Sequence record: OZ035773.1
DNA: 64,000 nt
Origin: Justusliebigvirus VEcB
Direction: 5' to 3' (one strand)
Part shown: positions 28,946 to 46,776 of the stretch, one piece after another
How the letters are laid out: each line of letters opens with the position of its first letter
Numbering within the stretch: position 1 is the first letter of the stretch
Notes under the pieces: model-generated
The model's input: only the letters and a program-made list of their open reading frames with translations
Told to the model about the DNA's origin: nothing
Databases searched by the model: none
Translations under genes and position numbers: made by a program

Positions 28946-30106
28946 TTAGTAAGAACGACCACCAAACACATACTCTGTGTAGTTTTTACGTTCTTTGTTT
29001 TTAATAACAACTTCAATGTTGTTGCCTTTATCATCGGTGAACACAAAGTGATAACCGTCACCACCCATTGTACGGATGTGTTTTTCATCATACGTCAGCA
29101 AGATACGGTCTACACCCCAGTAGTAGTCACCTTCTTCGTCTTTATCTTCTACGGTAACGACTCCTTCCATTTCAGGAAGATGCTCTTCTCCTGACTTATG
29201 ATCTACAGCTACAACATAACGATTACCGCTAAACAAACCTTGTGCTGTCATACCGTCAATATCTGTATCTGACGAAACATCTCCTGTACGATCTACACCG
29301 TTAACTTTCAGAAGTTTAACTTCTTTTGCAGCATAGCGGTGTTCAGTAATACTGATACCCATTAATGCAAGTGCATCAGAGAATTTGTCATTAGGGTAAC
29401 GGTTAAGTTCTTCTACTAGTGACTGAACAATATCAAAGTTCAAGTCCACGGAAAGATTATAAAGCGTTTCAAAATCTGGTAAAAAGGCTTTGTTCTCCAG
29501 ATTTTTAGCCAGATAGTCATCCATAGTAGCTTTAGGTAGTTTCTTATAGCTAAAGCTGTAGAAAATACGGCTAGGACGATTACGCAAAAATTCTGATACA
29601 TAACCATCATTTTTAGTCAATACAAACAGCTTGTCATAGCCACCAACACCATCCAGCAGGGTAAGCAAACCATCCTGTGCATCTTTTTCAGCATACAGTT
29701 TATCAAATTCATCGATCATAATCATCACAGGTTGTGTGATTTTAGACATAAAATTGATAAAGCCTTCACCATTAAAAGCACTACCGATAGAAATAGTAGG
29801 AATACCCATTTCACGAAGAGCAGAAGATAGCATTTTAGCTTGCAAAGTTTTACCGCTACCCTTCGTACCCTCAAGGAGAACACCTGTGTTTTTACCTTTG
29901 CGGCTAAGGAACGTCTTGATAATACGTTCTGATTTATCATCAGTATCACCGTATGTTACTGAAGGGACTTCCATATCGTTTTTAGGATACAGGAAGAACT
30001 CACCACTTTGGGTAACACCTACACCAAAAGTTCCTGCTGGAATTTCTTCGATATCTGTACCAGACTTCTGACGCAGGAAGATTTGATTGCCGAAGACTGT
30101 AAACAT
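28946..30106 (-). CDS. AAA-family ATPase (paralog A)
   Basis: Walker A GTKGSGKT, Walker B IMIDEFDK, sensor-1 VLTKN, Arg-finger-like RNRPSR; paralog of 45607-46734. Confidence 0.55.
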   Translation of the reverse strand: MFTVFGNQIFLRQKSGTDIEEIPAGTFGVGVTQSGEFFLYPKNDMEVPSVTYGDTDDKSERIIKTFLSRKGKNTGVLLEGTKGSGKTLQAKMLSSALREMGIPTISIGSAFNGEGFINFMSKITQPVMIMIDEFDKLYAEKDAQDGLLTLLDGVGGYDKLFVLTKNDGYVSEFLRNRPSRIFYSFSYKKLPKATMDDYLAKNLENKAFLPDFETLYNLSVDLNFDIVQSLVEELNRYPNDKFSDALALMGISITEHRYAAKEVKLLKVNGVDRTGDVSSDTDIDGMTAQGLFSGNRYVVAVDHKSGEEHLPEMEGVVTVEDKDEEGDYYWGVDRILLTYDEKHIRTMGGDGYHFVFTDDKGNNIEVVIKNKERKNYTEYVFGGRSY

Positions 30107-30126
30107 AGTTTTCTCCTCTATTTAAT

Positions 30127-30597
30127 TTAGTCAGATTCCCAAATGTTGTCTTTCTTAACCCACATTCGTTGATTATCTGAGCCTCTATAACGTTTCGTTG
30201 TTGGTTGATTCATATCATACTTACCATCTATCACTATGTCAACCAGTTTTTTAATTTTTTCTGGAATTTCTTCAAAAAGATATCCTGTATATAAGACAAT
30301 ATCTTTTTTGTTTCCAAAACAATCTCTTACCTTCTCAAGAACATACTCTACAGTGTCAATGTTCTCTTTGTCAAGAGGTTCACCACCTAAAACTGTTAAT
30401 CCTTTAATGAAAGGTCGAGATAAATCTTCCAAGATAAGATCTAATGTTTCAGCAGTGAACTCTTGTCCGTAGTTATACGACCAGGCTTTCTGGTTAAAGC
30501 AGCCACGGCAACCGTGGCTACAACCGCTCACCCACAAAGAGCATCTTACACCGTCACCGTTGAGCATGTCAACAGGTTCATATCCGGCGTAATTCAA
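30127..30597 (-). CDS. nrdG: Anaerobic ribonucleotide reductase activating protein
   Basis: Radical-SAM CxxxCxxC cluster (CSHGCRGC) near the N-terminus; small size; directly downstream of nrdD with a 4-nt overlap. Confidence 0.8.
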   Translation of the reverse strand: MNYAGYEPVDMLNGDGVRCSLWVSGCSHGCRGCFNQKAWSYNYGQEFTAETLDLILEDLSRPFIKGLTVLGGEPLDKENIDTVEYVLEKVRDCFGNKKDIVLYTGYLFEEIPEKIKKLVDIVIDGKYDMNQPTTKRYRGSDNQRMWVKKDNIWESD

Positions 30598-31535
30598 AAA
30601 TGTTTCTCCCTTTCTAGTACCTCTTGCATTTTACCTTTATTATAAGGGCGAGAGTTAGGGGCAGAAAGGTATCCTGACACTCTTCTGATCACAGATATGG
30701 ATTCTTCTTCATGATTGCCACAACTTGGACACTCGAAGCCTTTAGCCGTTGCTTTAAATTCACCATGAAAACCACATTTGAAACACTGATCTACAGGTTG
30801 GTTCACGCCAAAATAAGGAATTTTGTTGTAGGCATAATCTACAAGAGTTTCCAGTGCTTGCAAGTTATTTTTAAGGTTTGGTGTTTCTACATAACCTATG
30901 TTCCCACCATTACTAATTTGTGCAAAACCTTCCTCATAATCCCACTTTTGGAACGGGGTAGTGTGCATCCACACAGGTTGATGGAAAGAGTTTGTCAAGT
31001 AGTCACGATCAATAGAACCAGGATAGCGATCATTTAATGCTTTGGCAAATTTATAGCACAAGGATTCTGCTGGTGTTCCATACAAACTAAAAGCTAAACC
31101 AGAACGTTCTTTAAATGTGCCACAGATATCCTTCATATATTGAAGGATGTTTTTACCCATTGCTTTTGGATTGGTGTTACCTGGGTATAAAATCTCCATA
31201 GCTTCTGCTAAACCTACATAACCGATACTAATAGAGGCATAACCACCTTCAAATAGTTTACCAATCTCTTCATTAGCTTCTAATCGAGCTAAAGCCCCTT
31301 CCATAAACAATGTAGGGTTTTGAGATGCTTTGGTATGTCTAATACGGTTAACACGTAGCATATGTGCCTTATACGCCATCTCCATATGTTGTTCCAACAG
31401 TTCAGTAAATAAGATGCCCTTTTCACGGGACTCTGCTGCAATGATAGGTAAGTTTAAAGAAACTACGCCTAAGTTGAAACGACCATCATATTTTTCACCT
31501 TGCTCTGTTGCATAGTATGACAAGAAACTTCTACA
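30594..31535 (-). CDS. nrdD: Anaerobic ribonucleoside-triphosphate reductase, exon 2
   Basis: C-terminal zinc ribbon CxxC...CxxC and glycyl-radical motif RVSGYL; frame open upstream of the listed start; proposed exon start at TGT (Cys) of CRSFL. Confidence 0.8.
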   Translation of the reverse strand, partial: CRSFLSYYATEQGEKYDGRFNLGVVSLNLPIIAAESREKGILFTELLEQHMEMAYKAHMLRVNRIRHTKASQNPTLFMEGALARLEANEEIGKLFEGGYASISIGYVGLAEAMEILYPGNTNPKAMGKNILQYMKDICGTFKERSGLAFSLYGTPAESLCYKFAKALNDRYPGSIDRDYLTNSFHQPVWMHTTPFQKWDYEEGFAQISNGGNIGYVETPNLKNNLQALETLVDYAYNKIPYFGVNQPVDQCFKCGFHGEFKATAKGFECPSCGNHEEESISVIRRVSGYLSAPNSRPYNKGKMQEVLEREKHF

Positions 31536-31814
31536 CATTATGTTCAAAGTGGCTCGCAAGGCCACTCCCGCACCATTACGTGCTGCTGCATGTCACCATG
31601 CAGATCAGACTATATCTTCATGCTTAAAGCATGTCTACCATTTGGGGTGTCATAGGCTTACACCCTACGCTGCTACATTCATCACAGCTAGTCGTTAGGC
31701 ATTTCGTAATAGTACCCCCTTCTTCTGTGTTGGGAGTTCTGTTACGTTTAGCACGGGATTGTCTCGTTGAGAGTTCCCCCGTTTAGGCAGATTTTACATG
31801 AGCAGTTATAGTTT
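31536..31814 (-). ncRNA. Group I self-splicing intron (ORF-less, 279 nt) in nrdD
   Basis: Exon 1 ends ...AUGGGU, intron ends ...AUAAUG (omega G); intron GCUCAUG can pair with exon CAUGGGU to form P1 with a U-G at the splice site; R-like GCCUAACGACUAGCU and S-like AAGAUAUAGUCU elements present (P7 GACUA/UAGUC). Confidence 0.75.
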
Positions 31815-32672
31815 ACCCATGCTTGTGACGCGACCATCTGAAGATCCTGTAACTTCTTTGTTTAAAGGTACAGAGATAAAATCAGGATAAATGCGTTCAG
31901 CACAACACTCCATTGCCAGTTGCTTCAAATCATAGTTTGGATCGCCAGCTTTCATGTTAACACCATCTTCCAAGAAGAAGATAACTTTAGGAAACACAGG
32001 AGTTACCCTATCTTTTCCCAACCCTTGTTTGTGCACCATTAGGTAGTTTTTAGTGATCATTCTACCAAAAGCAGAGGTATCCAAACCTAAACTAATTGTT
32101 ATAAAAGGTGACTGACCATTTACACTCATTAGAGTGTTCACTTGGTAGATTAAAGTTTGCATTGCATCATAGACCTGTTTATCTACCATACGCATAGCAA
32201 TATCATAATCGCCAACATCGGCATATATTTTATTAAAACTTGCTTTAACGTATTGACTAAGCCCAGTATCAACATGTGCACAAGTTTGTCCACCATATTG
32301 GCTAGAAGCTACTGCTTGAATAATTTGAGTTAGGACAGTAGTCGCTACACCGATAGATTTTGGTTTTTCAATATGTGCATTACCAATACGGAAACCGTTC
32401 TCAAGCATATCTTGGTAATTTACCAGGCAACAATTAGTTAAAGGTGAGAGTAAATAATCTAAATCGTGGATGTGACCATACCCACTTTTATGCCATTCTG
32501 CTAAATCTTCCGGTAAAATATGGGTCATTGCCATGTGCTTGCTTAGGATACCTGCTAGTAAGTCTCGGTGAGTATTAACAATCATTGCAGGTTTGTTTGC
32601 ATTTTCACGAGTAAATTCTTCGGATGTTTGTTCGAGGAATCCGATTACATCCTCATATAGTTTTTGGGTCAT
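31815..32672 (-). CDS. nrdD: Anaerobic ribonucleoside-triphosphate reductase, exon 1
   Basis: N-terminal half of the reading frame; GGAGGA RBS upstream; terminates 2 codons past the proposed 5' splice site. Confidence 0.8.
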
Positions 32673-32692
32673 TAATCCTCCGTGGAAAATAA

Positions 32693-32716
32693 AAGCCAGC
32701 TTAATGCTGGCTTTAG
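32693..32716 (-). terminator. Rho-independent terminator (minus strand)
   Basis: AAGCCAGC-attaa-GCTGGCTT hairpin followed by TTTTATTTT. Confidence 0.55.
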
Positions 32717-32761
32717 GGTGGATCTTTATTTTAAATCTTTTTCGTAAGATTGTCCTTGATC

Positions 32762-33712
32762 TTAGTCAAGGTTTTTGGTAATACGTGTACAACCGTCAGA
32801 AGTCAAACCGTCAACTTGAGTTTCCCAAGTGCCATGAATATTTCGGAACAATGTTGTTACACCTTTTGGTTCATTAATAATGATTGCCATAACAAGTTTA
32901 GGATCGATAACAGACATAATCTTTTCCTCAATACCCTCTGTAATAACATTATTGCGCACAATATTAATTGCATCTTCTTGTACAGTAAGAGCACTTACGT
33001 TCTTAAGAGTATATACCTGCTGCGTAGTGTAAATGATACGAACATAGCTTACAGAACGAGTAGGCACAGGTTTACGCGGTCGGCGAAAACGTGGTTTTGG
33101 TGAAGATTCAGTCTTACTTTCATTTTTTGAATAATACTCCTCAAACAGTTTAGTAAATGTTTTTACATCAACTACAAACCGATCTTTCCTATATGGAGAA
33201 TTCTTATGTGCACCATTAATACCACTGTTTTCATCGAAGAAAGTAATGTTTTCTTCAGTTGAATATGTTAGATAATGGTCTGCATCTTTCCAATGTGGTT
33301 GTGGACAATGCGGATTACAAACGGAAAGCAGATAACTAATATCTTCTTCCGTTGCACTAGTATCCAGGAAACACGTATTATGCACAGTCAGTTGTACTTT
33401 TTCAGCCATATCTTTTTCTTTATCCTCATTGGTAAGATATTCAGTACGAAGAATTTCCAGAAAATTTTCAGGTGTTACTTCCATAAATGTATATTCAGGA
33501 TGAAGTTCCATATATTCAAATCCACAACCATCTAATTGCTGTAGAAAGTTAGGGTAGAAGAACAAGTCATTAACACTGTGAATCAGATCATTGATTTCTG
33601 CTTCAAACGTGTAACCAAAACTTTTGTGAATTGCCTCGTTAAGAATATGCAGGATACCCATCTCTTCTGCTGCTTTTTTAACTTCCAGTTTATTAGCGTA
33701 AAATGCAATCAT
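32762..33712 (-). CDS. Hypothetical protein
   Basis: Intact ORF. Confidence 0.45.
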   Translation of the reverse strand: MIAFYANKLEVKKAAEEMGILHILNEAIHKSFGYTFEAEINDLIHSVNDLFFYPNFLQQLDGCGFEYMELHPEYTFMEVTPENFLEILRTEYLTNEDKEKDMAEKVQLTVHNTCFLDTSATEEDISYLLSVCNPHCPQPHWKDADHYLTYSTEENITFFDENSGINGAHKNSPYRKDRFVVDVKTFTKLFEEYYSKNESKTESSPKPRFRRPRKPVPTRSVSYVRIIYTTQQVYTLKNVSALTVQEDAINIVRNNVITEGIEEKIMSVIDPKLVMAIIINEPKGVTTLFRNIHGTWETQVDGLTSDGCTRITKNLD

Positions 33713-33729
33713 TATGTTCTCCTTCTAAA

Positions 33730-34164
33730 TTAGTTTAAAATTTCTTTGGCAATGGTAGAAGCAAGTTTTCCATCATATTGATTAGGATACTCTGCTTTAA
33801 GGTGCTTCATCATATCTGGCATTTTCTTGCCTGTCAAGGCAAATTCTTCAGCAATCGCTCGAAGGTCATCTTCAGATAGCATTTCTGGTAAATATTTTTC
33901 CAGAGTGGTGATATCACGCATAGCTCGCTCACATTTGCTAAGGGAAGCATTAACTTTCTTAAGTGAGTCTAGCTCCTCTTTAGCGTGTGCAATACCAATC
34001 TTAACAATGTTAATCATAATATCATCTTCTGATTTATTTAGATTTGCCTTTTGAGTACGAGCAAGGTCAAACTCACCAATAATATTAGTTAACAAAGCAA
34101 AAGCACCCTTATCGGTTGTACGTGCTAAGATACGATCTGCTTTCATTTGTGTCACAATAGACAT
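33730..34164 (-). CDS. GatB/YqeY-domain protein
   Basis: KYLPEMLSEDDLRAIAEEF ... MPDMMKHLKAEYPNQYDGKLASTIAKEIL matches the YqeY/GatB C-terminal domain pattern. Confidence 0.6.
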   Translation of the reverse strand: MSIVTQMKADRILARTTDKGAFALLTNIIGEFDLARTQKANLNKSEDDIMINIVKIGIAHAKEELDSLKKVNASLSKCERAMRDITTLEKYLPEMLSEDDLRAIAEEFALTGKKMPDMMKHLKAEYPNQYDGKLASTIAKEILN

Positions 34165-34176
34165 TCTATTCTCCTC

Positions 34177-34749
34177 TTATTTGCTAATGCTTTGAATGTT
34201 ATTTACAACACGGTTTATTGCCAGTGAAGCCCTAGGCTCCGCAATACCTGTTGCATAGATATAAGGATGACCTTTTGGAGACTCCCTCATACCGAATGAA
34301 CCTAATTCTAAACCATATTCATCCTCTACGTCAACCCCAATATTAGTGGGTACTAAATATGTTTTAACTCCATAGTAAGTAGAGAAGAAACAGCGCATAG
34401 AGTTAGCATACTCTTCAATTGTAGCATCAGGATAGAACTCAATCAACTCCAATTTCAAGAAAATATTAAAATGGGTATCATCTAAATTTTCTTCTGTGCG
34501 GTAACATGGTGTTAGTGCCATATACGGATTACCTACTGCAAATTCAAAACCATCCTTCTCCATTTGCAGGAAAGATTGTTCTGCACTAGCTACATAGTAT
34601 TTACCGTTAGGATGCCCTAATGGGCGATCCTCTTTATTTTCTGGTAGTGTATACGCCAGTATATCAGCATCCACGAGATATGGAACTTCTAACATTTGTG
34701 CAAATCGACCATAGTAATCAATAGCTTGAGCTATTACTGCAACATTCAT
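34177..34749 (-). CDS. Hypothetical protein
   Basis: Intact ORF. Confidence 0.45.
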   Translation of the reverse strand: MNVAVIAQAIDYYGRFAQMLEVPYLVDADILAYTLPENKEDRPLGHPNGKYYVASAEQSFLQMEKDGFEFAVGNPYMALTPCYRTEENLDDTHFNIFLKLELIEFYPDATIEEYANSMRCFFSTYYGVKTYLVPTNIGVDVEDEYGLELGSFGMRESPKGHPYIYATGIAEPRASLAINRVVNNIQSISK

Positions 34750-34997
34750 GATCGACCTCCATTGCGGAATGCACGTTTAGTAATGTTTGACATAGTGATC
34801 AAATCTTGAAGCGTCATATCAGGAAAATGCTGTTCAAGAACACCTTCAACAGCGCCTACAATATCTGATAACTCAATAAGTTGCATCAGCTTGCAATCTT
34901 GATCAATAGCATCTTGAAGTTCATAAAGCTCTTCTTGAATCTTAGCAACAGAACCATATTCCTCTTTGCTAATCTCCTTCAAATGATACCCTGCCAC
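34746..34997 (-). CDS. Small MazG/HisE-like nucleotide pyrophosphohydrolase-like protein
   Basis: All-helical, with acidic EELYELQDA ... IELSDIVGAVEGVLEQ pattern resembling MazG-type NTP pyrophosphatases. Confidence 0.35.
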   Translation of the reverse strand: MAGYHLKEISKEEYGSVAKIQEELYELQDAIDQDCKLMQLIELSDIVGAVEGVLEQHFPDMTLQDLITMSNITKRAFRNGGRS

Positions 34998-35008
34998 TTT
35001 AACCCCCC

Positions 35009-37783
35009 TTAGTTTACCAGTTTATTTATATCTGGTAAAAGATTTATTTCACCTAAGAAATCACCTTCACCTTCCTCTAGCCAACTCTCATATGCTTGTG
35101 CATGATTATAGTTACCATCAAAAGAATCTGCAACAAATTTTTCTACAGTTTTTCGAGATGTGCCAGCACCAAATACACCAAGTTTAATACCATTGATCGG
35201 TAAAGTGGTGCTTGTGGGTACTTTCTCTGTTGCAACACGGTTGATATCTATAATCTCCTGTACGGTTGTATTCCATTGTAAGCATTTAACACAACGGGTA
35301 TGCGCTACATACAGTAGGTTTCGCTCTGCCTCTTCTAGTCCTACCCATTCACCAGTCTTTTTATCATAATTGGAAGGAAAATCATTAGCAACAATAACCT
35401 GATCCCACTCCAAACCTTTAGACTTGTGTGCTGTAGTCAATGTGACTTTTGCTGTAGGAGAATTTCTATGCGTTCTAAGGGTATGTGCTATAGTGTTTGC
35501 CTTACCAGAAACTACAATGTTTAACAAGCGTTTAGCATCTGGATCAGCCTCTGCACACTCAACAAATTCATCCCAGTCTGCGTAAGGTAATACAGTTTCA
35601 TGTTTTACTTTCTCAATATCTCCTCTCCGAAGAGCATTAACACTATCTACCATAGAGATAAAATCCCTGGTATCTACGTTAATAATAATTTCTTCCCCAT
35701 CTGCAATACGATCCATTGCCTCCATAAGCAAGGTTAAATTCTTGCGAAAGATGATAGTGTAAGGTTTTGTATAGTCTACAACATCTGATTTGTAGCTACC
35801 TACTACAGTATCAAAGCCTTTACCAACCAAAGGATGACGCAAAGGTTCTTTATCGCTTAAAATCATATTGGCAATGTTTGCCACTTTGGGGCCAAAACGG
35901 AAGCAAGCAGTTAATGGAAGTTCTGCCCCATACTTAGCTGTTTCAATCATCATATTAGAGCTACCTCTAAATTGATAAATGCAGTTGTGGCTAAGAATTT
36001 CATTGCCAAAGAAGTTAGCAGTATCCTCTACTTCAATATCATAATAGATACCCTCACTATCTACAATGTCCACAATCTCTTCTGCCGTTACAGTATCACC
36101 ATCTTTTACCAACACAGACATGCCTTTAAACAAACCCGCTGCCGGAATTAAGTTATATTTGGCACTGTTCACAGAGGACATGCATTCTTTTAAAGATGCA
36201 AACGGAACTATTTCAAGGATCTTTTGTGCAAAACTCAATGCTTCACGATAAGAATTGAAATATTTACGTACACGGTAACGACCTTCCAATTTAGCAGCAC
36301 TTACGCTTACACCTGCTTTAATCAGTGAAGAATAGATCGGCATTTCACTTTCTGTCCACTCAAAACTAACTTGTGTTCCTTTACAACCTTGCGCTCGCAA
36401 AGTCACTGTTAGCATTTTTCTTTCATCTACTGCACAATTGATGCTGTGCCAGTGTGGATAAGCAAAATGATAATCTTTATCCTCTAAAAGTTTAAAACCA
36501 TTTTGTCCGAATTGTTCAAAGATGTTATTGATCTTTTCTTGATTAATGCCGCGTGAACTTGCTTCAAATACACAAGTAGGAATGCCATATTGTAAACTGT
36601 AAGCCATTTCTTTTTCCATAGCAGCTTCACGGTTTTCAACAATATCCAACACCCATAATTTCTGTGCTTTTTCAGAACGTGTACGTTGCCCCAGTTTAGA
36701 AAAACCTTCTTTATCATCGAATTTGTTAGTGATCCCTACTCGGAAACCTAAATCTTTCCTCCACATTAGGTATACCACCATCTGATCATCTTTCAGAACA
36801 TAGGATGAAGCCCAAATACGATGGTTATGTGTCATATCTAAAGTTTTACCTGTGGCAGTAATAATATTCCTACCTTTTGTACGTGTAGATAAAGTCTTAT
36901 TTGTTACTTTTCTAAATGTAATTTTACCATTAGAATAAGACTCTACCTTATCACCGATTTGTAGGTCTTTCATTGTAACCTGACCATTCTCGGTATTAAG
37001 TACCGTGTTTTCCGACACACATTGGAATTCGTCACCCACTACCACAATTTGTTTTGCAGATTTAGCATTTCGCAGAATAGACAAGAATGCAGGGTTAACA
37101 TCCTGGAATTCATCACCAAAAATAATATCATAACCAAGATCAGCACCAGACAATTCAAACAATTTTACATAGGTGTCATGCGTCATCAAAGTATCTGTAT
37201 TAGGATCAATGCGCTCTCGCCACAATTGTTTTGCATACTTAACTACTTCTGTAATTAGTTTGTGTTCGTTAATACCTTTTCTTTTAATATCTGCAAGATG
37301 TACACTAGGAAAATGTTTACGGCTGATAAAAGGATCATCCGAAAATTCAAACTTACCTACGGTTTGCTTGATCATTAAACCGATCATAGCACGAGTTAAA
37401 AGTGTTTTCCCTCGTTTATCAATAAGATTATTAATCTTAAATTTCTTTGCTATCTCGCTACCTGTACCTGCAACGTTAACATACTGTCCTTCTGGTCGTG
37501 ACAGTTTTGCACGTAAACGATGGTCCAGGAATTGATAGCAAATAGAATGCAATGTACGGCATTCTACATTTAGTGGCATCTTACGTCGTGCTTCTTCTGC
37601 CATGCTTTTATTGAAAGCTAAGTAAAGAATGCGATCTTCTGTACTGTTAGCCAGCAAATAAAGTGTTGACGTTTTGCCTGATCCAGATTTAGCTTGGATA
37701 GTTAAAAAGCGATGGTCTGGAAAAGCCTCCTTAATAGCTGTTTGCTCTTCTGTTGGAGTGAAGCTCAACTCTTTCTTAGCCAT
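35009..37783 (-). CDS. SF1 (UvrD-like) DNA helicase interrupted by an intein
   Basis: Walker A AKSGSGKT, DEFQD box, motif III split as VVGDEFQ | intein | IYQFRGS; start placed at the ATG at 37783 with AGAGAGG RBS. Confidence 0.8.
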   Translation of the reverse strand: MAKKELSFTPTEEQTAIKEAFPDHRFLTIQAKSGSGKTSTLYLLANSTEDRILYLAFNKSMAEEARRKMPLNVECRTLHSICYQFLDHRLRAKLSRPEGQYVNVAGTGSEIAKKFKINNLIDKRGKTLLTRAMIGLMIKQTVGKFEFSDDPFISRKHFPSVHLADIKRKGINEHKLITEVVKYAKQLWRERIDPNTDTLMTHDTYVKLFELSGADLGYDIIFGDEFQDVNPAFLSILRNAKSAKQIVVVGDEFQCVSENTVLNTENGQVTMKDLQIGDKVESYSNGKITFRKVTNKTLSTRTKGRNIITATGKTLDMTHNHRIWASSYVLKDDQMVVYLMWRKDLGFRVGITNKFDDKEGFSKLGQRTRSEKAQKLWVLDIVENREAAMEKEMAYSLQYGIPTCVFEASSRGINQEKINNIFEQFGQNGFKLLEDKDYHFAYPHWHSINCAVDERKMLTVTLRAQGCKGTQVSFEWTESEMPIYSSLIKAGVSVSAAKLEGRYRVRKYFNSYREALSFAQKILEIVPFASLKECMSSVNSAKYNLIPAAGLFKGMSVLVKDGDTVTAEEIVDIVDSEGIYYDIEVEDTANFFGNEILSHNCIYQFRGSSNMMIETAKYGAELPLTACFRFGPKVANIANMILSDKEPLRHPLVGKGFDTVVGSYKSDVVDYTKPYTIIFRKNLTLLMEAMDRIADGEEIIINVDTRDFISMVDSVNALRRGDIEKVKHETVLPYADWDEFVECAEADPDAKRLLNIVVSGKANTIAHTLRTHRNSPTAKVTLTTAHKSKGLEWDQVIVANDFPSNYDKKTGEWVGLEEAERNLLYVAHTRCVKCLQWNTTVQEIIDINRVATEKVPTSTTLPINGIKLGVFGAGTSRKTVEKFVADSFDGNYNHAQAYESWLEEGEGDFLGEINLLPDINKLVN
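35984..37021 (-). mobile_element. Intein in helicase (346 aa, Cys1 ... His-Asn, +1 Cys)
   Basis: Begins CVSENTVLNTENG (block A), block B GKTLDMTHNH, ends IYYDIEVEDTANFFGNEILSHN followed by Cys; inserted in helicase motif III. Confidence 0.8.
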
Positions 37784-37784
37784 T

Positions 37785-38261
37785 TCAACCTCTCTTAATT
37801 TGTTTAACAAGCATAGGAACAAAATCTCGTTTTAAAATTTGTTCAATAATATGATCAGGTAGCTGTTGGAAATTATAATTAAAAGCTACTGTCTCACCTT
37901 TAGGTGTTTCTACCCGCACATATAACATGTTACGAAGTTTATCCACTTGTGCTGTATATTCTAAACCATGTAATTGATGCATTGCAAACATCAAATCATC
38001 AGTTTCAGTTTGGAATCTATCATTTGCTTGCATTAAGGATAAGGTAAAAGGTAGATTTTCCCTAAGAGCCACCTTCTTAGGAACTAGTGAAGGAAAATAC
38101 TCACCAATAACTTCCTGTGTAAGCTGGATACACTCTTTTTCAAGTTGGTTTTGTTCCTTAAGTTCACAAACACTTTTTTGTAAAGTGTTAACCTCTTTTT
38201 GCAAAGCTGCTAGTTGAGCACTTAACTTTCTTTTTTGATTACGACCAAAACGTTTAGACAT
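37785..38261 (-). CDS. Hypothetical protein
   Basis: Intact ORF, N-terminal coiled coil. Confidence 0.45.
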   Translation of the reverse strand: MSKRFGRNQKRKLSAQLAALQKEVNTLQKSVCELKEQNQLEKECIQLTQEVIGEYFPSLVPKKVALRENLPFTLSLMQANDRFQTETDDLMFAMHQLHGLEYTAQVDKLRNMLYVRVETPKGETVAFNYNFQQLPDHIIEQILKRDFVPMLVKQIKRG

Positions 38262-38269
38262 ATTTCCCC

Positions 38270-38785: not shown

Positions 38786-38806
38786 TATATTTTCCTTATT
38801 GGTTTG

Positions 38807-39536: not shown

Positions 39537-39537
39537 A

Positions 39538-39888: not shown

Positions 39889-40251
39889 TTATTTCTCCTT
39901 ATCATCATATTCTAGGAACATATCTGCACGATATGCTTTACGCTCTTCAAACTTAGCAGGATCTACAACAATAAGCAATACAAGGTTAACATCTAAATAC
40001 TTCTTAACAAATAGAAATAAATCTTTTCCACAGTTAAAACCTACACCAGTATAGGCATCCCCATATTGATCTACTGATTTAATCTTCTTACTAACCGTAC
40101 ACTCTATGCTATTCTTTTCTTCTTGGTATAAGGCTTTCCCACCCCAATATGTAAAGAATTTAGTACCGTCAGCACCAAGTTTAAAACCCTCTGTTGCATG
40201 TCCCGCAAATGAAAGTAAACATAACCAAGTGATCATCAGGTACTTTAGCAT
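39889..40251 (-). CDS. Secreted hypothetical protein
   Basis: Signal peptide MLKYLMITWLCLLSFAGHA from the ATG at 40251. Confidence 0.4.
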   Translation of the reverse strand: MLKYLMITWLCLLSFAGHATEGFKLGADGTKFFTYWGGKALYQEEKNSIECTVSKKIKSVDQYGDAYTGVGFNCGKDLFLFVKKYLDVNLVLLIVVDPAKFEERKAYRADMFLEYDDKEK

Positions 40252-40252
40252 T

Positions 40253-40735
40253 TTAACCACCCAATTGCAAATGTTTAGAAAGAACAATATCCCATTGATC
40301 ACCACAACCGTTATCTATGCGGAACATAATGTACGTATCATCTTCTTCTACAACATACCGTACCTCATAGGAGTTACAACAGTCTTCCCAATTTTTAACG
40401 GCTTCTGGTGTATGATGTGTAAGAATTTCATTACCATCATATGACCAAAACAAAGGGGTAAGGTTTTCGAAGGTCAGTGAAGTAGGGTTTACTTCATCTT
40501 TAACTGCTTCCTCATATTCTTTATGCGTTTGTACTGCTTTAGTTAGTGTACTCATGTCTATCTCCTTTTCTCCTTCTTGACTATGGAGGATAGCGAACTC
40601 TCTAAACTCCACTTCACGCCATGTTTTCAGGTAGTGCTTTATGATTTTATCAACATCTGTCTGTTCAACATTACTTTTCAAACAATAGTAATCATGGTCT
40701 TCGCCCATTCTACCCCATATGCTATACATTGTCAT
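40253..40735 (-). CDS. Hypothetical protein
   Basis: Intact ORF. Confidence 0.45.
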   Translation of the reverse strand: MTMYSIWGRMGEDHDYYCLKSNVEQTDVDKIIKHYLKTWREVEFREFAILHSQEGEKEIDMSTLTKAVQTHKEYEEAVKDEVNPTSLTFENLTPLFWSYDGNEILTHHTPEAVKNWEDCCNSYEVRYVVEEDDTYIMFRIDNGCGDQWDIVLSKHLQLGG

Positions 40736-41003
40736 CTGATTGATCCTTTACATTGTTCTTGGCATACACAGGAATAACATCATGGTGATCTTTATTACTT
40801 TCGTCTGTTAAAGCCCAAAACAACTTACCTGCCGGATGTTTAAAGATGTAAGCAATAGGTTCCTCTTCCTGTGCTTCTTTGCTACGGATGCCATCCCGCC
40901 AGGCAAGCCAAGTGTAGATCATCATCTCTTGACGTTCTTCTTCATTAGGCCACAGATGGGGTAGAAAGTTTTTATCAAACCATTGCTTAAATTCTTCAGT
41001 CAT
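40722..41003 (-). CDS. Hypothetical protein
   Basis: Intact ORF. Confidence 0.4.
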   Translation of the reverse strand: MTEEFKQWFDKNFLPHLWPNEEERQEMMIYTWLAWRDGIRSKEAQEEEPIAYIFKHPAGKLFWALTDESNKDHHDVIPVYAKNNVKDQSDDNV

Positions 41004-41013
41004 AGTCTACTCC

Positions 41014-41178
41014 TTAGCGTACAAAGTTAACTTCTGCTTCTTTCAGCTTTGACACTTCTACATAACCACCATGATCATCTTTAATCCATTCTTTTCCTTT
41101 ACGAATGATAACAGGATATGTAGAGTGAGTAAGTTTAGGTACAGATCTTTTTGTTTTAGTGATAGAAATGTTTTGCAT
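41014..41178 (-). CDS. Small ORF (54 aa), not in the ORF track
   Basis: ATG at 41178 preceded by AAGGAGAC; basic protein. Confidence 0.3.
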   Translation of the reverse strand: MQNISITKTKRSVPKLTHSTYPVIIRKGKEWIKDDHGGYVEVSKLKEAEVNFVR

Positions 41179-41238
41179 AGTAGTCTCCTTAGTAAATTTT
41201 ACATAGAGTCTAGATTATTTAGTAGGTAGAGTCAATAA

Positions 41239-41505
41239 CTAATTACTGTTAGATCTGTACTCTGTCTTCCATTCACAATGGTAAACTTCAACAGGTTCTA
41301 ACTTCCAGTGTTCAGGAACTAGTTCAGGACAATATCTACAAAAGAGAAATAGATAGATAACTAAGACAGGTATTAAATAGTAAAATGGTATACGATCATA
41401 ACCATACTTACGAGATAACATGTAGACATATAGATAGGGTATAACAATTAATCCTATAACTATAAGTAAGAAGAGAAGTATAAACCTTAGTGTAGTAACA
41501 TCCAT
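41239..41505 (-). CDS. Small membrane protein
   Basis: Two hydrophobic helices; AGGAGAATA RBS; 9-bp stem hairpin in the 5' leader (41536-41570). Confidence 0.45.
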   Translation of the reverse strand: MDVTTLRFILLFLLIVIGLIVIPYLYVYMLSRKYGYDRIPFYYLIPVLVIYLFLFCRYCPELVPEHWKLEPVEVYHCEWKTEYRSNSN

Positions 41506-41669
41506 AGTATTCTCCTATACAGTAATATACTCTGTTCCTGCCCCTCCATGAGTGACAGGAACAATATCTATAGAGAATACTAACTCGCTTCGCTCGTCAC
41601 CTTTCAGGTTTAGGGTAGCATGTTTTTCTGAAAAAGTCAATACTCTCCACAAAACTTTACAAAATACTT

Positions 41670-41942
41670 TTACATAGGTACAACAGAATCTGTTTTGAAG
41701 TCGTACATATGATTTACACCTGTGATTTTTGACATAGAGATTGCACGTTTAGCACCTGCAATTACCTGGTCTGTCTTCTTAATCTCTTCACGGAACTTAC
41801 GTACAGTTAAAGAGAAGAAACGATGATCCATCCATTGACGATTCACACGATCACGCTTGAAGTGACGGAAATCTTCAATCTGTTTATTGCGTAATCGGCG
41901 CAGTACATGCAACAGTTTATAGTAAGGGTGTTTATTTTTCAT
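41670..41942 (-). CDS. Hypothetical basic protein
   Basis: Intact ORF. Confidence 0.4.
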   Translation of the reverse strand: MKNKHPYYKLLHVLRRLRNKQIEDFRHFKRDRVNRQWMDHRFFSLTVRKFREEIKKTDQVIAGAKRAISMSKITGVNHMYDFKTDSVVPM

Positions 41943-41945
41943 AAT

Positions 41946-42374
41946 TTATTCTCCAAATCGAAAATCGTCAATATCATCAAACCATACACAATGGCGAGTC
42001 CTTTCTTTTTCTGTTGCAGACATTGTTTCAACAGCTTTAGGACTAAGCACAACAGGAGTGTAACGAATAGGTCGTTCATAATAGTAGCCATACTTTTCTG
42101 TATTAGCTGCCTCAAACACTTTACGGCGTTCTTCAAGATCTTCTATGGTGAATCCTACCATATAACCATCATATTTGCTACCCCATCCTTCCTCACTTTC
42201 AACAATTGGAGTATAAAAGCCGTTACGCGTCTCTGACGCTGGTTTTTCTTGAGCCTGAAGGCAAGTCTCCCACCCTGCTTTAAAGACGTTATAGAGCGAT
42301 TTACGCACGTTATGAGTGCCGCTTTCACTTGCTGGATAGAGTTCATTAAATTTGTCTTGAATTTGTTGTGTCAT
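41946..42374 (-). CDS. Hypothetical protein
   Basis: Intact ORF. Confidence 0.45.
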   Translation of the reverse strand: MTQQIQDKFNELYPASESGTHNVRKSLYNVFKAGWETCLQAQEKPASETRNGFYTPIVESEEGWGSKYDGYMVGFTIEDLEERRKVFEAANTEKYGYYYERPIRYTPVVLSPKAVETMSATEKERTRHCVWFDDIDDFRFGE

Positions 42375-42517
42375 ACTCGCCCCTTAGTGATTATTTGACC
42401 AGCTAAACAAATAGCTTGTAGTACAGTAAAGAAGTAGCCTAATTTTACACTACCTAGTACCCAGAATGCAATGTTTGCAAACAAACAAAAAGCAATATTA
42501 AGTTTAAAGAATAACAT

Positions 42518-42718
42518 TTAATCCCCTTCATATTTAGGTAAAGGCATATATGCCACAATAGGAGGGTAATCAAAGTGAAAATGATGGTTCACCACAATAA
42601 TCTTACCAGACATACTTTTATGCACTTCACAATACCCTTTTTCACCATCTTCCATTACCACCACATACTCACCTAGTGGAATATCGTATGGATCTTCTAC
42701 TTTTACCCATTCTGTCAT
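42518..42718 (-). CDS. Hypothetical small protein
   Basis: Intact ORF. Confidence 0.4.
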   Translation of the reverse strand: MTEWVKVEDPYDIPLGEYVVVMEDGEKGYCEVHKSMSGKIIVVNHHFHFDYPPIVAYMPLPKYEGD

Positions 42719-42870
42719 TTTGTAAACTCCTCATAGTAAGGTAAAGCCTTGATCAGTTGTTCTGAAGTGCCATTTTGCACCCACGTAACACCATTGTCAA
42801 CAGAAACATACCCTTTTTTGTCAATAAATTTACGCAGACAGTCAGTGAACTTGTTTTTGTAGATAACCAT
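42715..42870 (-). CDS. Small ORF (51 aa), not in the ORF track
   Basis: ATG at 42870 preceded by AAAGGAGTAAAC; stop overlaps the next start (ATGA). Confidence 0.3.
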   Translation of the reverse strand: MVIYKNKFTDCLRKFIDKKGYVSVDNGVTWVQNGTSEQLIKALPYYEEFTK

Positions 42871-42884
42871 GTTTACTCCTTTGT

Positions 42885-43070
42885 CTATTGTTCTTTCTCA
42901 ACTTTACGCAGTTCATCTCGGCAATTGTTTTGATATTTTTGATCATTTAGTTCCTCATTTGTAAGGACTGTAATTAGTAGTTCATTAACAAGTTTTGGAA
43001 TTGATTTCCCTTCTGCCTTTGCGCGATTTAACAACGCGTTATAAGTTGCAGAGTCAAAATTAATATTCAT
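42885..43070 (-). CDS. Hypothetical small protein
   Basis: Intact ORF. Confidence 0.35.
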   Translation of the reverse strand: MNINFDSATYNALLNRAKAEGKSIPKLVNELLITVLTNEELNDQKYQNNCRDELRKVEKEQ

Positions 43071-43085
43071 TTGGTTTTCTCCTTA

Positions 43086-43442
43086 TTACATCCACAGATT
43101 ATGGAAATACTTAGCAAACAAAATACGACCTTCTAAACGATCTTGCCGCTGTTTTTCATTAACTTCTTCTGGTGGAGTTAAATCCTTAAAAGAGGACTCC
43201 ATTTTTTCAAGAATTTCTAGCCAGTGTTCTGCTGCTCGTTCTTCCATATAAGGTAGATAGTCACCTTTAGCGTGTGGGTACATCCGACGAAGTAACCCAC
43301 TAGGAATTTTAACATTGTTTGTGGCTATCACTTTTGCACGATATGCAGAAAGTGCATTGTAGATCAGTTTACTTAGTGTCACATCCAGATCAAGAAGATC
43401 ACTCTCTTCAAATTGAATTTCATCGTGTACAATTTTCATCAT
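43086..43442 (-). CDS. Hypothetical protein
   Basis: Intact ORF. Confidence 0.4.
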   Translation of the reverse strand: MMKIVHDEIQFEESDLLDLDVTLSKLIYNALSAYRAKVIATNNVKIPSGLLRRMYPHAKGDYLPYMEERAAEHWLEILEKMESSFKDLTPPEEVNEKQRQDRLEGRILFAKYFHNLWM

Positions 43443-43723
43443 GCCTTCTCCCGATCTGCGTCTAATTTCAACAAGAAAGCTGTATACTCTTCCGAACCTT
43501 GGTGTAAAAACATGCGATAAGAGCTTACCAGTTTCTTCGTTGTTGTATAACGTTCCATTTCCCCAACAACACCTCCACCCAGTGTGTAGAGCACAACACC
43601 CTCAAACCCAACATGAGTTACTACTTCAACCAAATCTGTGTTATCCCAATGGTAGTTAGGTGACACAATAAGATCGCCAACTGCCAGTTTAATGTTTGCT
43701 GCTTCGTCTTGTGAATAGTACAT
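43439..43723 (-). CDS. Hypothetical protein
   Basis: Intact ORF. Confidence 0.4.
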   Translation of the reverse strand: MYYSQDEAANIKLAVGDLIVSPNYHWDNTDLVEVVTHVGFEGVVLYTLGGGVVGEMERYTTTKKLVSSYRMFLHQGSEEYTAFLLKLDADREKA

Positions 43724-43735
43724 TTTGTTCTCCTC

Positions 43736-44026
43736 TCACATTAAGACACGTTTTGTACCGATGGGAGCATTGTCGAACATGTTTATCACTTTGTCAAGTT
43801 TGTGTATTAACTCGTTCGTAATGTTCCACTCTTTGTATGATCTCCATTGTTTCTTATTCTCACCTACCTGGTGTAAAACTTTGATTGGTGCATTCAAACG
43901 TACATTGCGTTCTTTGTCCTCTTCAAAAGAGGCTAACCATTTTTCGTTATGCCCATGAACAGCAATAATAATGCCAAAACCATCAAAAGTTTCTGTAATA
44001 TTCTTAGTTGCTAGTGTGATGTTCAT
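43736..44026 (-). CDS. Hypothetical protein
   Basis: First gene of the minus-strand block; AAAGAGG RBS. Confidence 0.45.
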   Translation of the reverse strand: MNITLATKNITETFDGFGIIIAVHGHNEKWLASFEEDKERNVRLNAPIKVLHQVGENKKQWRSYKEWNITNELIHKLDKVINMFDNAPIGTKRVLM

Positions 44027-44085
44027 ATCTAACCTCTTTTGTTACGATGCACACAGAGTACCAGAAATTAATTTCAGATCAAGTA

Positions 44086-44113
44086 TTGACATACTGTTTT
44101 ATTGTGCTAATCT
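44086..44113 (+). promoter_or_regulatory. sigma70-like promoter for the rightward block
   Basis: TTGACA (44086-44091), 16-nt spacer, TAATCT (44108-44113); 33 nt upstream of the ATG at 44146. Confidence 0.5.
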
Positions 44114-44145
44114 TAATGCATACACAAATGAGAGGAGATAAACGA

Positions 44146-44697
44146 ATGCAAAACATCGATCTGACTTGGATAGAAGCCAAAGAAGCAATGTTAAAAGGCA
44201 AACGCGTTAAACATAAATACTTTTGCGAAGGAGAATGGTTTGAAATGCGTAACCGATCCATTGTAGATGAAAAAGGGAATGACATGCAACAATGGTTCAA
44301 AAATGAAATTTGGCAGGGAACAGGTTGGTCTGTAGTTGAAGAGCAGCCTAGCTCAAGCGCACTGTTTAGCCCTATTATGTATTGCGTTATCGGTGCTTTA
44401 GTTGTTGATCACGGGATTGCAGTGGAAAAAGAATGCTGGGAAGAGGTATCTTTTTTCAACCTGGCTTCTTATGCAAAAAGCCATATGCACTTGTTTGAAG
44501 AAGGGGATGAATTTGTTCTTCGTATGCGATATGGCAAAGAATTCAGATTACCACTTGATAATGATGTAGACACTGTTGTAAAATGGTTAGCAGAGCATTA
44601 CGCTTACGATGCAATTTGTGGTCGCAGCTTCGGCAACGAACGCTGGGACATGATTTGTGAAAAATATGATTTTGAGCCGGAGTACGGAGTTTTATAA
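44146..44697 (+). CDS. Hypothetical protein
   Basis: ATG at 44146 with GAGAGGAG RBS; the longer track ORF start would precede the promoter. Confidence 0.5.
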   Translation: MQNIDLTWIEAKEAMLKGKRVKHKYFCEGEWFEMRNRSIVDEKGNDMQQWFKNEIWQGTGWSVVEEQPSSSALFSPIMYCVIGALVVDHGIAVEKECWEEVSFFNLASYAKSHMHLFEEGDEFVLRMRYGKEFRLPLDNDVDTVVKWLAEHYAYDAICGRSFGNERWDMICEKYDFEPEYGVL

Positions 44698-44948
44698 TGT
44701 TAAGTATCACACCTAAAATGATAACAGAAGACGAAGCAGACTTTATTTTCAAATGTGGACGTGTATGGAGAGAATTCACAAAAGGAAATGAAGTGGTTGT
44801 TGTTGTTGAACACAAGATATCTATTCAGGATCTGTTTGGACAATATGTTGATGTTATTAAATTAGGTATTGACAAGGGTTTAGTTGAGGTGTTAACATTA
44901 GATCAAGTTGAAGCAGAGCACCTCGATAAAGTGGTGGTTGAATTTTAA
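44697..44948 (+). CDS. Hypothetical small protein
   Basis: Intact ORF, translationally coupled to the upstream gene. Confidence 0.4.
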   Translation: MLSITPKMITEDEADFIFKCGRVWREFTKGNEVVVVVEHKISIQDLFGQYVDVIKLGIDKGLVEVLTLDQVEAEHLDKVVVEF

Positions 44949-44968
44949 AATACAGACGGGAGAAAGGT

Positions 44969-45142
44969 ATGAGTTTCTTTGTTACAGTATTTATGGCTAT
45001 CTGGATTGTAGTCTCACTCGTTCTTTTCCTGGTGGGTTGTCTGGAAGAGATTAAGAAAGCGGTTATTTGCGGTTTCTTTGGCTTTATTATCTCTCCTGCC
45101 TGGATGTGGTTCTTCATTATGATTGGTTTCCTTAAAAGGTAA
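44969..45142 (+). CDS. Small membrane protein (57 aa), not in the ORF track
   Basis: ATG preceded by GGGAGAAAGG; two hydrophobic helices. Confidence 0.4.
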   Translation: MSFFVTVFMAIWIVVSLVLFLVGCLEEIKKAVICGFFGFIISPAWMWFFIMIGFLKR

Positions 45143-45156
45143 GTGAGGAATAAAGA

Positions 45157-45594
45157 ATGAGTAAAACAAACGCAATCGCAGATAAAGCAACGGATGTACT
45201 TCTGAACATGGTTAACGTCACTATTCAAACAATGAGTGATGTTGTGGAGTTTGGAAAACAACAAATTCCAGAAGTAATCCATCAATTATTAGTGTGGAAA
45301 GCAGTATCCGCAGGTTTATGGCAACTTTTTAGTATTTGCTTTATGTTTATTACTTTTATTGCTGTGCGGAACCTCGTAAAAGCAATTAAAGATAAAGAAT
45401 GCCTGTGGTCACGAGATCGCTATGGTGAAGTATCTGCTTTACCTATTGTTGGTCTTGTTGTCTGTGCTTTCTTTTTCTTTTTAGGATTTGTTATTTTCTT
45501 TTCGAATTTTGATTGGCTAAAAATTATTATTGCACCAAAAGTGTATCTGATTGAATTTGCTGCTGATTTAATTCGTTCATCTCAACAAAGATAA
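45157..45594 (+). CDS. Membrane protein
   Basis: GTGAGGA RBS; two long hydrophobic segments. Confidence 0.5.
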   Translation: MSKTNAIADKATDVLLNMVNVTIQTMSDVVEFGKQQIPEVIHQLLVWKAVSAGLWQLFSICFMFITFIAVRNLVKAIKDKECLWSRDRYGEVSALPIVGLVVCAFFFFLGFVIFFSNFDWLKIIIAPKVYLIEFAADLIRSSQQR

Positions 45595-45606
45595 AAGGGG
45601 GTTAAA

Positions 45607-46734
45607 ATGAAATACACGATTTATGGTGATATTGTAAGTGTAAATAAAGATATGGGCGTGGAATCTAACTATCTTCCACCTGGATTCTATACTGTTAGTC
45701 GTGATCCCCTTGGCAATTACTTTTTAAGCCGTGGTAATCTAACAGGTGTACCGGATGTTCTGTATGGTGAAACAGAAAAACGAGCAAATCACGTTATTCG
45801 TACATTCCATCGCCGGAGTGCACAAGGTAAAAACACAGGCTTGCTTCTGACAGGAACTAAGGGTAGTGGTAAAACTATGTTAGCCAAACTCATTAGTCGT
45901 GACCTTGTAGAAGAAGGTATTCCAACTATTATGGTTACTCAAGCCTACAGTGATGCTAATTTCATTGAACTTATTAGCAAGATCACAGACAAAGCAGTGA
46001 TTATTTTTGATGAATTTGATAAAGTATATGAGAAGAAACAAGATCAAGAAGCACTTCTCACTTTGTTAGATGGTACTGGCAGTGGTAATAAACTGTTTAT
46101 TCTAACTAAAAACAGTGGCTTTATCTCTGAATTCTTTCTAAATCGTCCTAGTCGTGTGTTTTATAATTTTAATTATGATAAAATCTCACTAGAAACTATG
46201 ATTGACTATTTAGATAAAAACCTGGATAACAAAGCACACTTTGATAATTTCCAAAGGCTTTGGGATGTAAGTTTAGAGTTGTCCTTTGATGTGATCCAAG
46301 GTATAGTAGAAGAACTTAATTTCTACCCTGATTTATCCTTTAAAGAATGCATCTCTATGATGGGCGTTTCTTTGGGTGGTGGTAATAAGTGGGATATCAG
46401 CAGCGTTGTTATTAATGGGAAACTTCAGAAAGTTAGCTGGGTATCTAGTTGGCATAACTTCACACCTGCAATCTTTTTAGGTGGCTCGTGCACACTAGAC
46501 GTGTACTTGTCATCTCCAAGTGATGCAGATTCTAAAGAAGCCCTTGCTAATAGCTCTTACGTGGTTTTTGATGATGAAGGAGATGCTCGAATTCCATTGA
46601 ATGCGACAAAAATGAAAGCAGATCTTATTACAGGCGGTAAAATCGTTGTGTTTAGTGATGATCCAGAAGATTCTTTCCGTATTGTTCTGGAACCAACTAT
46701 CACCAATGGTGCAACTTTGGCAAGCGTGTTTTAA
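45607..46734 (+). CDS. AAA-family ATPase (paralog B)
   Basis: Walker A GTKGSGKT, Walker B IIFDEFDK, sensor-1 ILTKN, RPSRVFY; paralog of 28946-30106 with a divergent C-terminal domain. Confidence 0.55.
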   Translation: MKYTIYGDIVSVNKDMGVESNYLPPGFYTVSRDPLGNYFLSRGNLTGVPDVLYGETEKRANHVIRTFHRRSAQGKNTGLLLTGTKGSGKTMLAKLISRDLVEEGIPTIMVTQAYSDANFIELISKITDKAVIIFDEFDKVYEKKQDQEALLTLLDGTGSGNKLFILTKNSGFISEFFLNRPSRVFYNFNYDKISLETMIDYLDKNLDNKAHFDNFQRLWDVSLELSFDVIQGIVEELNFYPDLSFKECISMMGVSLGGGNKWDISSVVINGKLQKVSWVSSWHNFTPAIFLGGSCTLDVYLSSPSDADSKEALANSSYVVFDDEGDARIPLNATKMKADLITGGKIVVFSDDPEDSFRIVLEPTITNGATLASVF

Positions 46735-46749: not shown

Positions 46750-46776
46750 AAAACCCGCTCCGGCGGGTTTTCTTGT
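46750..46776 (+). terminator. Rho-independent terminator
   Basis: AAACCCGC-tccg-GCGGGTTT hairpin followed by TCTTGTATT. Confidence 0.55.

Follow-up and report, generated by a model that had tools for sequence, protein, structure and literature searches.

Two divergent paralogous AAA ATPases on opposite strands of a Justusliebigvirus genome and their fast-evolving C-terminal domains

Among the AAA ATPases represented in the PDB, the D2 module of p97/Cdc48 and the proteins VAT, NVL, AFG2 and Rix7 are the best matches (E values of 3e-13 to 1e-8) to the sequence profile of a phage protein family, PHROG 2376, which carries the label 'ATPase' and has no assigned function. Here we analyse two genes for such proteins, ATPase A and ATPase B, which lie on opposite strands of a 64,000-nucleotide stretch of Justusliebigvirus VEcB DNA (sequence record OZ035773.1; the whole stretch is called the window below). 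The ~19 kb around both genes matches phi92, an Escherichia phage of the genus Justusliebigvirus (Stephanstirmvirinae), at 98.3% DNA identity, and matches dozens of close relatives at this level too. In the RefSeq record of phi92 the orthologues of A and B, gp190 and gp221, are labelled 'ATPase; predicted AAA domain fold; putative ATPase or Zn metalloprotease'. The window proteins are 98-100% identical to deposited proteins annotated as ATPases, and the bare observation of two ATPases is already contained in public annotation (GenBank). No paper on function came up in a literature search that covered Stephanstirmvirinae, anti-defence by phage AAA proteins, PHROG 2376, and gp190 and gp221 of phi92; the genome-wide screens that were checked concern unrelated phages (Bas63, a Felixounavirus, and SUSP1, with 138 coding sequences) and were not treated as informative. 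An original prediction, made from the letters of the window, had placed the two genes as follows, and both reading frames were found open exactly so.

ATPase A: 28946..30106, minus strand, 386 residues plus stop, orthologue of phi92 gp190 (open reading frame and translation)
ATPase B: 45607..46734, plus strand, 375 residues plus stop, orthologue of phi92 gp221 (open reading frame and translation)

The two proteins are paralogues, as had been proposed. Their BLASTP alignment covers 375 positions at 39% identity with an E value of 1e-81, far beyond chance, and since it runs from end to end the similarity is not limited to the P-loop. Identity amounts to 27% in the N-terminal domain, 54% in the AAA alpha/beta core, 47% in the lid and 15% in the C-terminal part, which agrees with the shared N-terminal domain and AAA core described earlier. 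The motifs quoted for that core are present in both proteins: the Walker A sequence GTKGSGKT, IDEFDK in A and FDEFDK in B, LTKN, and NRPSR. Against the PHROG 2376 profile, A gave an E value of 2.3e-104 (residues 1-376 on profile positions 2-359 of 363) and B one of 6.6e-108 (residues 1-367 on positions 1-357 of 363), and by this measure both belong to this one phage family. Neither copy is a pseudogene. Both genes are intact and under purifying selection, differing from phi92 by 19 synonymous and 4 non-synonymous codons in A and by 24 synonymous and no non-synonymous codons in B, and both proteins retain all the residues that do not vary across an alignment of 120 family sequences. AlphaFold monomer models were obtained with a predicted local distance difference test score (pLDDT) of 89.7 for A and 87.2 for B. 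Alignments and models suggest the following division of the two proteins.

A, small N-terminal beta domain: 29951..30106, minus strand, residues 1-52, five strands in the model
A, AAA module: 29357..29950, minus strand, residues 53-250
A, beta-rich C-terminal domain: 28949..29356, minus strand, residues 251-386, acidic and fast-evolving (from alignment, hhalign and model)
B, small N-terminal beta domain: 45607..45765, plus strand, residues 1-53
B, AAA module: 45766..46365, plus strand, residues 54-253
B, beta-rich C-terminal domain: 46366..46731, plus strand, residues 254-375, fast-evolving, homologous to that of A

The N-terminal domain of A ends at an invariant Y52-G53 linker, and its conserved positions (A numbering) are G6, L22-P23, G25, Y/F27, L39, Y52 and G53. 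In the AAA module of A we located Walker A (G80-T87), the loop P/A110-F111-x-G113, Walker B (D132-E133), the sensor-1 residue N166, and the arginines R177 and R180, followed by a lid of four helices that contains F224-D225 and lacks a sensor-2 arginine. The corresponding sites of B are G83-T90, D135-E136, N169, R180 and R183, again followed by the lid. The C-terminal domain of A carries an insertion of 8-9 residues (YYWGVDRI) relative to B and has a charge of -9.8. Both proteins are strongly acidic, with an isoelectric point (pI) of 4.9 and a net negative N-terminal domain, lid and C-terminal domain. Profiles of the N-terminal and C-terminal domains found no sequence relative in the PDB.

Both AAA modules exceed the gathering cut-off (21.2 bits) of the AAA family PF00004, A with 29.4 and B with 38.9 bits. 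B also narrowly passes the cut-off (27.2) of nSTAND3 (PF20720) with 29.3 bits, A reaching 19.0; that match spans the P-loop half only, PF00004 scores higher, and the arginine pair and lid of A and B are of the AAA type. Searches of NCBIfam and PADLOC gave sub-threshold P-loop matches only. Column statistics over 121 family sequences (positions in A numbering) revealed as invariant the Walker B residues DE, K136, Q144, L148, D152-G153, N166, R177, R180, Y183, F224-D225 and N235. At the Walker B strand, A has IMIDEF and B has IIFDEF. The stretch that is NRPSR in A and B has the family consensus NRPGR and was aligned by HMMER to the RPGR of p97 D2; the longer pattern [LF]-x-N-R-P-[GS]-R-[IV]-[FY]-Y corresponds to L-L-R-P-G-R-F-D of the second region of homology. 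Lid helix 3 starts with [NST]-F-D-[MV] and has no arginine there, the absence of sensor 2 resting on an alignment by eye to F-S-G-A-D-L of FtsH and p97. In the comparison with p97, 109 positions of the family profile correspond to 129 residues. By sequence, the motor is a compact classical AAA module that is closest to p97/Cdc48 D2, and A and B most likely belong, as active enzymes, to a branch of the classical AAA clade that is specific to phages. We argue for activity because the catalytic residues are invariant across the 121 sequences and because 103 of them have an aromatic residue at position 111 (Phe in 41, Trp in 32, Tyr in 30), with Gly or Asp at position 113. This loop, P-[FWY]-x-G, may be a trimmed pore loop 1.

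The labels 'ATPase or Zn metalloprotease' and 'FtsH-like protease' in several GenBank records would make A and B FtsH-like ATP-dependent zinc metalloproteases, a reading to which we give next to no credence. HExxH occurs in neither protein, peptidase M41 was absent from the Pfam matches returned, the region past the lid is beta-rich and not a helical protease domain, and A and B resemble FtsH in the common AAA module only. At the sequence level the label is refuted.

Other automatic annotations ('DnaC', 'replicative helicase', 'DNA replication protein') suggest replication accessory ATPases, that is, a helicase loader or a clamp-loader-like factor. Weak matches to clamp-loader and DnaC-like PHROG families (E values of 1e-8 to 1e-5) and a weak match to Hda in NCBIfam (4e-7) point in this direction, as does the position of A, the last gene of an operon with a UvrD-type helicase and the nrd genes. 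In the crAss-like phage cr273_1, moreover, a distant relative of 259 residues that lacks the C-terminal domain is encoded between a primase and an exonuclease (L089, 3881-4660). The scores of A and B are, however, far below the cut-offs (IstB 19.9 against 200, PRK08116 27.5 against 189, Hda 29.8 against 194.8), and the model has no initiator-specific insertion, alpha2 (residues 114-122) running straight into beta3 (127-131). In place of a sensor-2 arginine there are the arginine pair of the classical AAA proteins and their lid motif, and the combination of features that marks the clamp-loader clade (a strong profile match to PHROG 168 and related families, the SRC arginine motif and a sensor-2 arginine) is not present. 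The strong acidity of the proteins also argues against such a role, and no replication gene was recurrent as a neighbour in 80 diverse IMG/VR loci, in which open reading frames were called and clustered. We therefore regard a replication factor as quite improbable.

The C-terminal domains had been described as unrelated, and a direct comparison of these parts of A and B gave an insignificant BLASTP E value of 0.04. Several lines of evidence nevertheless show that they are homologous. In addition to the end-to-end matches with the PHROG 2376 profile, profile-profile comparison bridges the two through clade C, a group of 368-residue family members (P0024-29) found only on uncultured contigs of ~154 kb. 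The C-terminal part of A matches that of clade C with a probability of 96% (E value 2.7e-9) and B matches it with 91.5% (8.7e-7), and the profiles of A and B match each other collinearly over 108 columns (1.5e-3). A C-terminal profile of 80 distant family members in turn matches the profile of A, B and clade C (94.6%, 6.5e-8). After the lid, strands and helices follow each other in the same order in the AlphaFold models of A and B, and Foldseek aligned B over its full length (~390 columns) with family members of Erwinia, Salmonella, Agrobacterium, Proteus and Lactobacillus phages. The multiple alignment has shared landmarks along the domain, namely [IV]-[ST]-x-G, x-[VI]-N-G, the acidic loop D-x-[DE]-G-D, G-x-[KH]-[IF]-V-[FV] and G-D-[ST]-[FY]-[ER]-[IV]-V, with an aromatic residue close to the C-terminus. 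Judged from these profiles and models, the C-terminal domains of A and B descend from a single ancestral domain that evolves fast and is present throughout the family.

The speed of this evolution is evident from orthologues. A and its orthologue P0031 are 91% identical in the core and 52% in the C-terminal domain; for B and P0017 the values are 87% and 31%. The C-terminal domain diverges at 3-5 times the rate of the core, orthologues included, and is retained family-wide despite its fast divergence. It is because of this very fast evolution that the two domains look unrelated and that the first reading of them was misled. A Pfam search with 16 C-terminal sequences found no relative, and when the C-terminal hidden Markov model was run exhaustively against 1.84 billion representatives, family members and compositional matches alone came back. 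In the latter, the acidic loop is paired with repeats in giant repetitive proteins of 1100-4600 residues. This loop, conserved in both C-terminal domains, resembles calcium-binding motifs of the DxDxDG type. Using phmmer, residues 201-291 of B (46207-46479, plus strand), a segment made up of the lid and the first part of the C-terminal domain, weakly matched several PDB entries of the NS1 effector domain of influenza A (E value ~1e-3), probably by chance.

For the function of A and B, we give about an even chance to the reading that each is a ring-shaped protein remodeller, that its end domains choose the clients, and that the two enzymes are specialised for different clients. The ring, the trans-acting arginines and the remodelling of a client are carried over from established knowledge of classical AAA proteins. 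By this analogy, the subunits would most likely assemble into rings, R177 and R180 would act in trans in ATP hydrolysis between subunits, and hydrolysis would drive pulling on, or remodelling of, a protein client through the central P-[FWY]-x-G loop. The choice of client or partner would fall to the N- and C-terminal domains, which are acidic and evolve rapidly, as suggested by a C-terminal domain that changes much faster than the core and is yet kept throughout the family. The low pI and the net negative N-terminal domain, lid and C-terminal domain suggest a protein rather than DNA as the client. Comparing A with B, the end domains have diverged far more than the motor, which fits different clients or partners, and specialisation for different clients is the most likely reason why two old copies have been kept. 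B would then represent the ancestral function of the family and A an added specificity in phi92-like phages and their relatives that infect Klebsiella.

Several points weigh against this reading. The AAA core is ~20 residues shorter than p97 D2. The beta2-alpha2 loop has only ~6 residues, its middle residue is polar, and the small helix that classical AAA proteins typically have at this place is not seen in the model. With such a short core and such a loop, canonical substrate threading is uncertain. Given the crAss-like relative in a replication module, part of the wider family may have a role connected with nucleic acids, and we found no experimental datum for any PHROG 2376 member.

A more specific proposal is that the ring is an unfoldase for counter-defence or host takeover, which would take apart host proteins that form oligomers, for instance immune effectors. 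Targets would be recognised by the hypervariable C-terminal domain under arms-race selection, and two copies would mean two targets. The hints consist of the fast C-terminal domain, the location of the genes in early-type or auxiliary regions, the NAD-salvage genes that neighbour some family members, the NADAR gene two genes downstream of B, and the structural resemblance to Trip13, a regulator of CBASS. We consider this proposal, with its arms race and its two targets, unlikely.

It has also been suggested that phages encode Bcs1-like translocases or chaperones that act in membrane-proximal virion assembly by moving proteins into the head in the folded state; such a role was proposed by Iyer et al. 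(2021; PMC7824862) for 'BCS1 orthologs' of jumbo phages, which may or may not belong to PHROG 2376. PHROG 2376 does occur in jumbo phages (CBB, Serratia BF and Atu_ph07), and in BFVD the BCS1-like ATPases of giant viruses come next after the family members. However, the lead of Bcs1 over Trip13, NSF D2 and NVL is marginal, Bcs1 is absent from the 60 best PDB matches of the family profile, and BCS1_N is not among the Pfam matches at E values up to 1. Instead of a membrane anchor, the N-terminus forms a five-stranded beta domain that is acidic and soluble, and the genes are found among nucleotide-metabolism and small early-type genes, outside the structural modules. That A and B work in this way seems doubtful to us.

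We next consider the history of the two copies. Phapecoctavirus has a single gene whose product is 64.5% identical to B over the full length, and it occupies the same place, as compared with phAPEC8, upstream of a large open reading frame and a NADAR gene. A was found in 54 Justusliebigvirus records at 95% identity or more, and at 75% in a small number of Klebsiella Stephanstirmvirinae. Among the records listed, every cultured-phage record that has A also has B. In Phapecoctavirus ESCO13 the gene order is nrdD, nrdG, a 63-residue gene, a 201-residue gene and a hydrolase, and A is missing exactly at the position that it has in phi92. Sequence and synteny thus mark B as the ancestral copy and A as an old extra copy. 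Over the N-terminal domain and AAA module, identity is 47% for A and B, 55% for A and clade C, 53% for B and clade C, and no more than 43% for A and any other family members. In a neighbour-joining tree with bootstrap values, A and clade C form a group (60%) whose sister is the B clade, and the CBB-like jumbo phages fall outside. The term 'duplicated', used in the original prediction, holds in an old sense only, as A is no closer to B than it is to clade C. By these comparisons the split between A and B is old, and an ancient duplication with loss is indistinguishable from acquisition from a clade-C-like phage. On L004 (Logan contig SRR10882646_19, 154 kb), the clade C protein is the closest relative of A at 46% identity; in the cultured-phage collection, the best match of clade C is gp190, likewise at the 46% level.

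Signals for expression were read from the sequence around each gene.

Shine-Dalgarno-like GAGGAG of A: 30113..30118, minus strand, 6 nucleotides upstream of the ATG
Shine-Dalgarno-like AGGGGG of B: 45596..45601, plus strand, 5 nucleotides upstream of the ATG
Intrinsic-terminator-like hairpin of A: 28918..28939, minus strand, 9 pairs of which 5 are G-C, T-rich tail, starts 7 nucleotides past the stop
Intrinsic-terminator-like hairpin of B: 46750..46771, plus strand, 9 pairs of which 5 are G-C, starts 16 nucleotides past the stop

The two hairpins are among the three strongest in 19.5 kb, in which the total number of such sites equals the shuffled expectation. A sigma-70-like site that agrees with the consensus at 11 of 12 positions (TTGACA-17-TATGAT, 30214-30242, minus strand) lies within nrdG, ~100 nucleotides upstream of the start of A. 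It could be A's own promoter; the number of such sites in the region equals the shuffled expectation.

The arrangement of the genes bears on whether A and B might co-assemble in one mixed ring, like Pex1/Pex6, Yta10/Yta12 or the Rpt subunits. The duplication would then have given rise to one hetero-oligomeric machine instead of two separate ones. Such a ring would accord with the constant company of B in the cultured phages that have A (~60 records have the two places), with the conservation of the trans-acting arginines and all catalytic residues in both proteins, and with the motor being the best conserved part between them (54%). However, the genes are 15.5 kb apart on opposite strands, each the last before its own terminator-like hairpin, most family members including that of Phapecoctavirus are single copies, and A and B are no closer to each other over the N-terminal domain and AAA module than either is to the single-copy clade C. 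There is, in our estimation, little chance of a mixed ring.

The neighbours named in the original prediction are present. An nrdG gene and an nrdD gene, the latter split by an intron, lie upstream of A, and zinc-finger and NADAR genes lie downstream of B.

Group I catalytic intron in nrdD: 31586-31860, minus strand, Rfam RF00028, 72.5 bits, E value 6e-17
UvrD/Rep-type helicase open reading frame: 35009-37822, minus strand, 937 residues
Gene after B: 46809-47981, plus strand, three CapR-homology (treble-clef zinc-finger) domains and T5orf172, homing-endonuclease-like
NADAR-domain protein gene: 47982-48533, plus strand, next after the CapR/T5orf172 gene

The intron splits nrdD, the anaerobic ribonucleotide reductase gene, into the open reading frames 30594-31565 and 31806-32672, and phi92 annotates a spliced variant. 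Close relatives annotate the UvrD/Rep-type helicase as an intein-containing precursor. In Phapecoctavirus a different gene, of 486 residues, takes the place of the CapR/T5orf172 gene. A 'hypothetical tRNA' annotated antisense to gp190 in phi92 (117581-117668; the region of 29380-29470 in the window) is probably spurious, and ARAGORN found no tRNA in the 64-kb window.

These neighbours give little signal of function. In Klebsiella phage phi1_175008, A lies upstream of the same 63-residue gene as above and has no nrdDG beside it, so that the adjacency of A to nrdG and nrdD is incidental; functional coupling of A to nrdDG, which we considered, is not conserved in this relative or in Phapecoctavirus, and the gene after B is homing-endonuclease-like. 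The survey of 80 IMG/VR loci found no conserved partner gene, the best neighbour family being present in 13. Because no neighbour family exceeds this number, the PHROG 2376 ATPase looks like a stand-alone enzyme. Its neighbours are always co-oriented and are mostly small unknown genes or auxiliary enzymes. A family of 164-residue proteins that neighbours the ATPase in 13 loci is macro-like by eye and has no Pfam match. A nicotinamide phosphoribosyltransferase gene (NAMPT, confirmed by Pfam) lies within 6 kb in 11 of the 80 loci, directly upstream in five, and an NMNAT-Nudix gene lies within 6 kb in seven. The loci with NAD-salvage genes are L016, L020, L035, L037, L041, L046, L055, L059, L064, L069 and L084. 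As they are a minority, we treat this recurrence as a lead and not as evidence. In Salmonella phage 7-11, where it stands beside an Srd-like sigma-70 decoy, in Aeromonas phage LAh_8 and in Bacillus phage Deep Blue, the ATPase gene is found among small early-type genes.

The original prediction was thus correct but for the 'unrelated' C-termini, and its interpretation, different substrates or partners for the two ATPases, is reasonable and partly supported. The genes are known and annotated, their fold class is ordinary, and no mechanism is derivable from sequence. The family is widespread, with members in Stephanstirmvirinae, CBB-like and other jumbo phages, 7-11-like phages, Lahexavirus, Herelleviridae and 949-like lactococcal phages, distant relatives in crAss-like phages, and hundreds of metagenomic members. 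A compact classical AAA motor with a hypervariable domain that may bind clients is a plausible tool for remodelling protein complexes of host or phage, and two old, diverged copies in one phage would amount to a natural experiment with two specificities on one motor. The phages of this group are genetically tractable, infect E. coli, and include members of the BASEL collection.

Compared with described systems, A and B resemble Cdc48/p97 D2, VAT, NVL and AFG2/Rix7 in Walker A and B, in an LLTxxDG stretch, in the sensor-1 Asn and in the R-P-x-R pair. The lid sequence F-[NS]-F-D-[ML]-x-x-L-V-E-E also parallels the F-S-G-A-D-L-x-x-L-V-x-E-A of the p97 group, both being without a sensor-2 arginine. 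Unlike that group, PHROG 2376 proteins have a single AAA module, ~20 residues shorter, with a very short putative pore-loop-1 region, P-[FWY]-x-G, before which no small helix is predicted, and their N- and C-terminal beta domains are unrelated to the end domains of the p97 group. They differ from mitochondrial Bcs1 in lacking a transmembrane anchor and BCS1_N, and in that the extra large beta domain is C-terminal rather than N-terminal. With Bacillus subtilis YjoB (PDB 7w42) the AAA module alone aligns (205-218 residues), and this comparison gave no evidence of shared accessory domains. The bacterial Trip13/Pch2-like ATPase of CBASS (PDB 6p8v) is 13-14% identical and has different end domains, and no HORMA partner gene lies nearby; the resemblance is that of the generic AAA fold.

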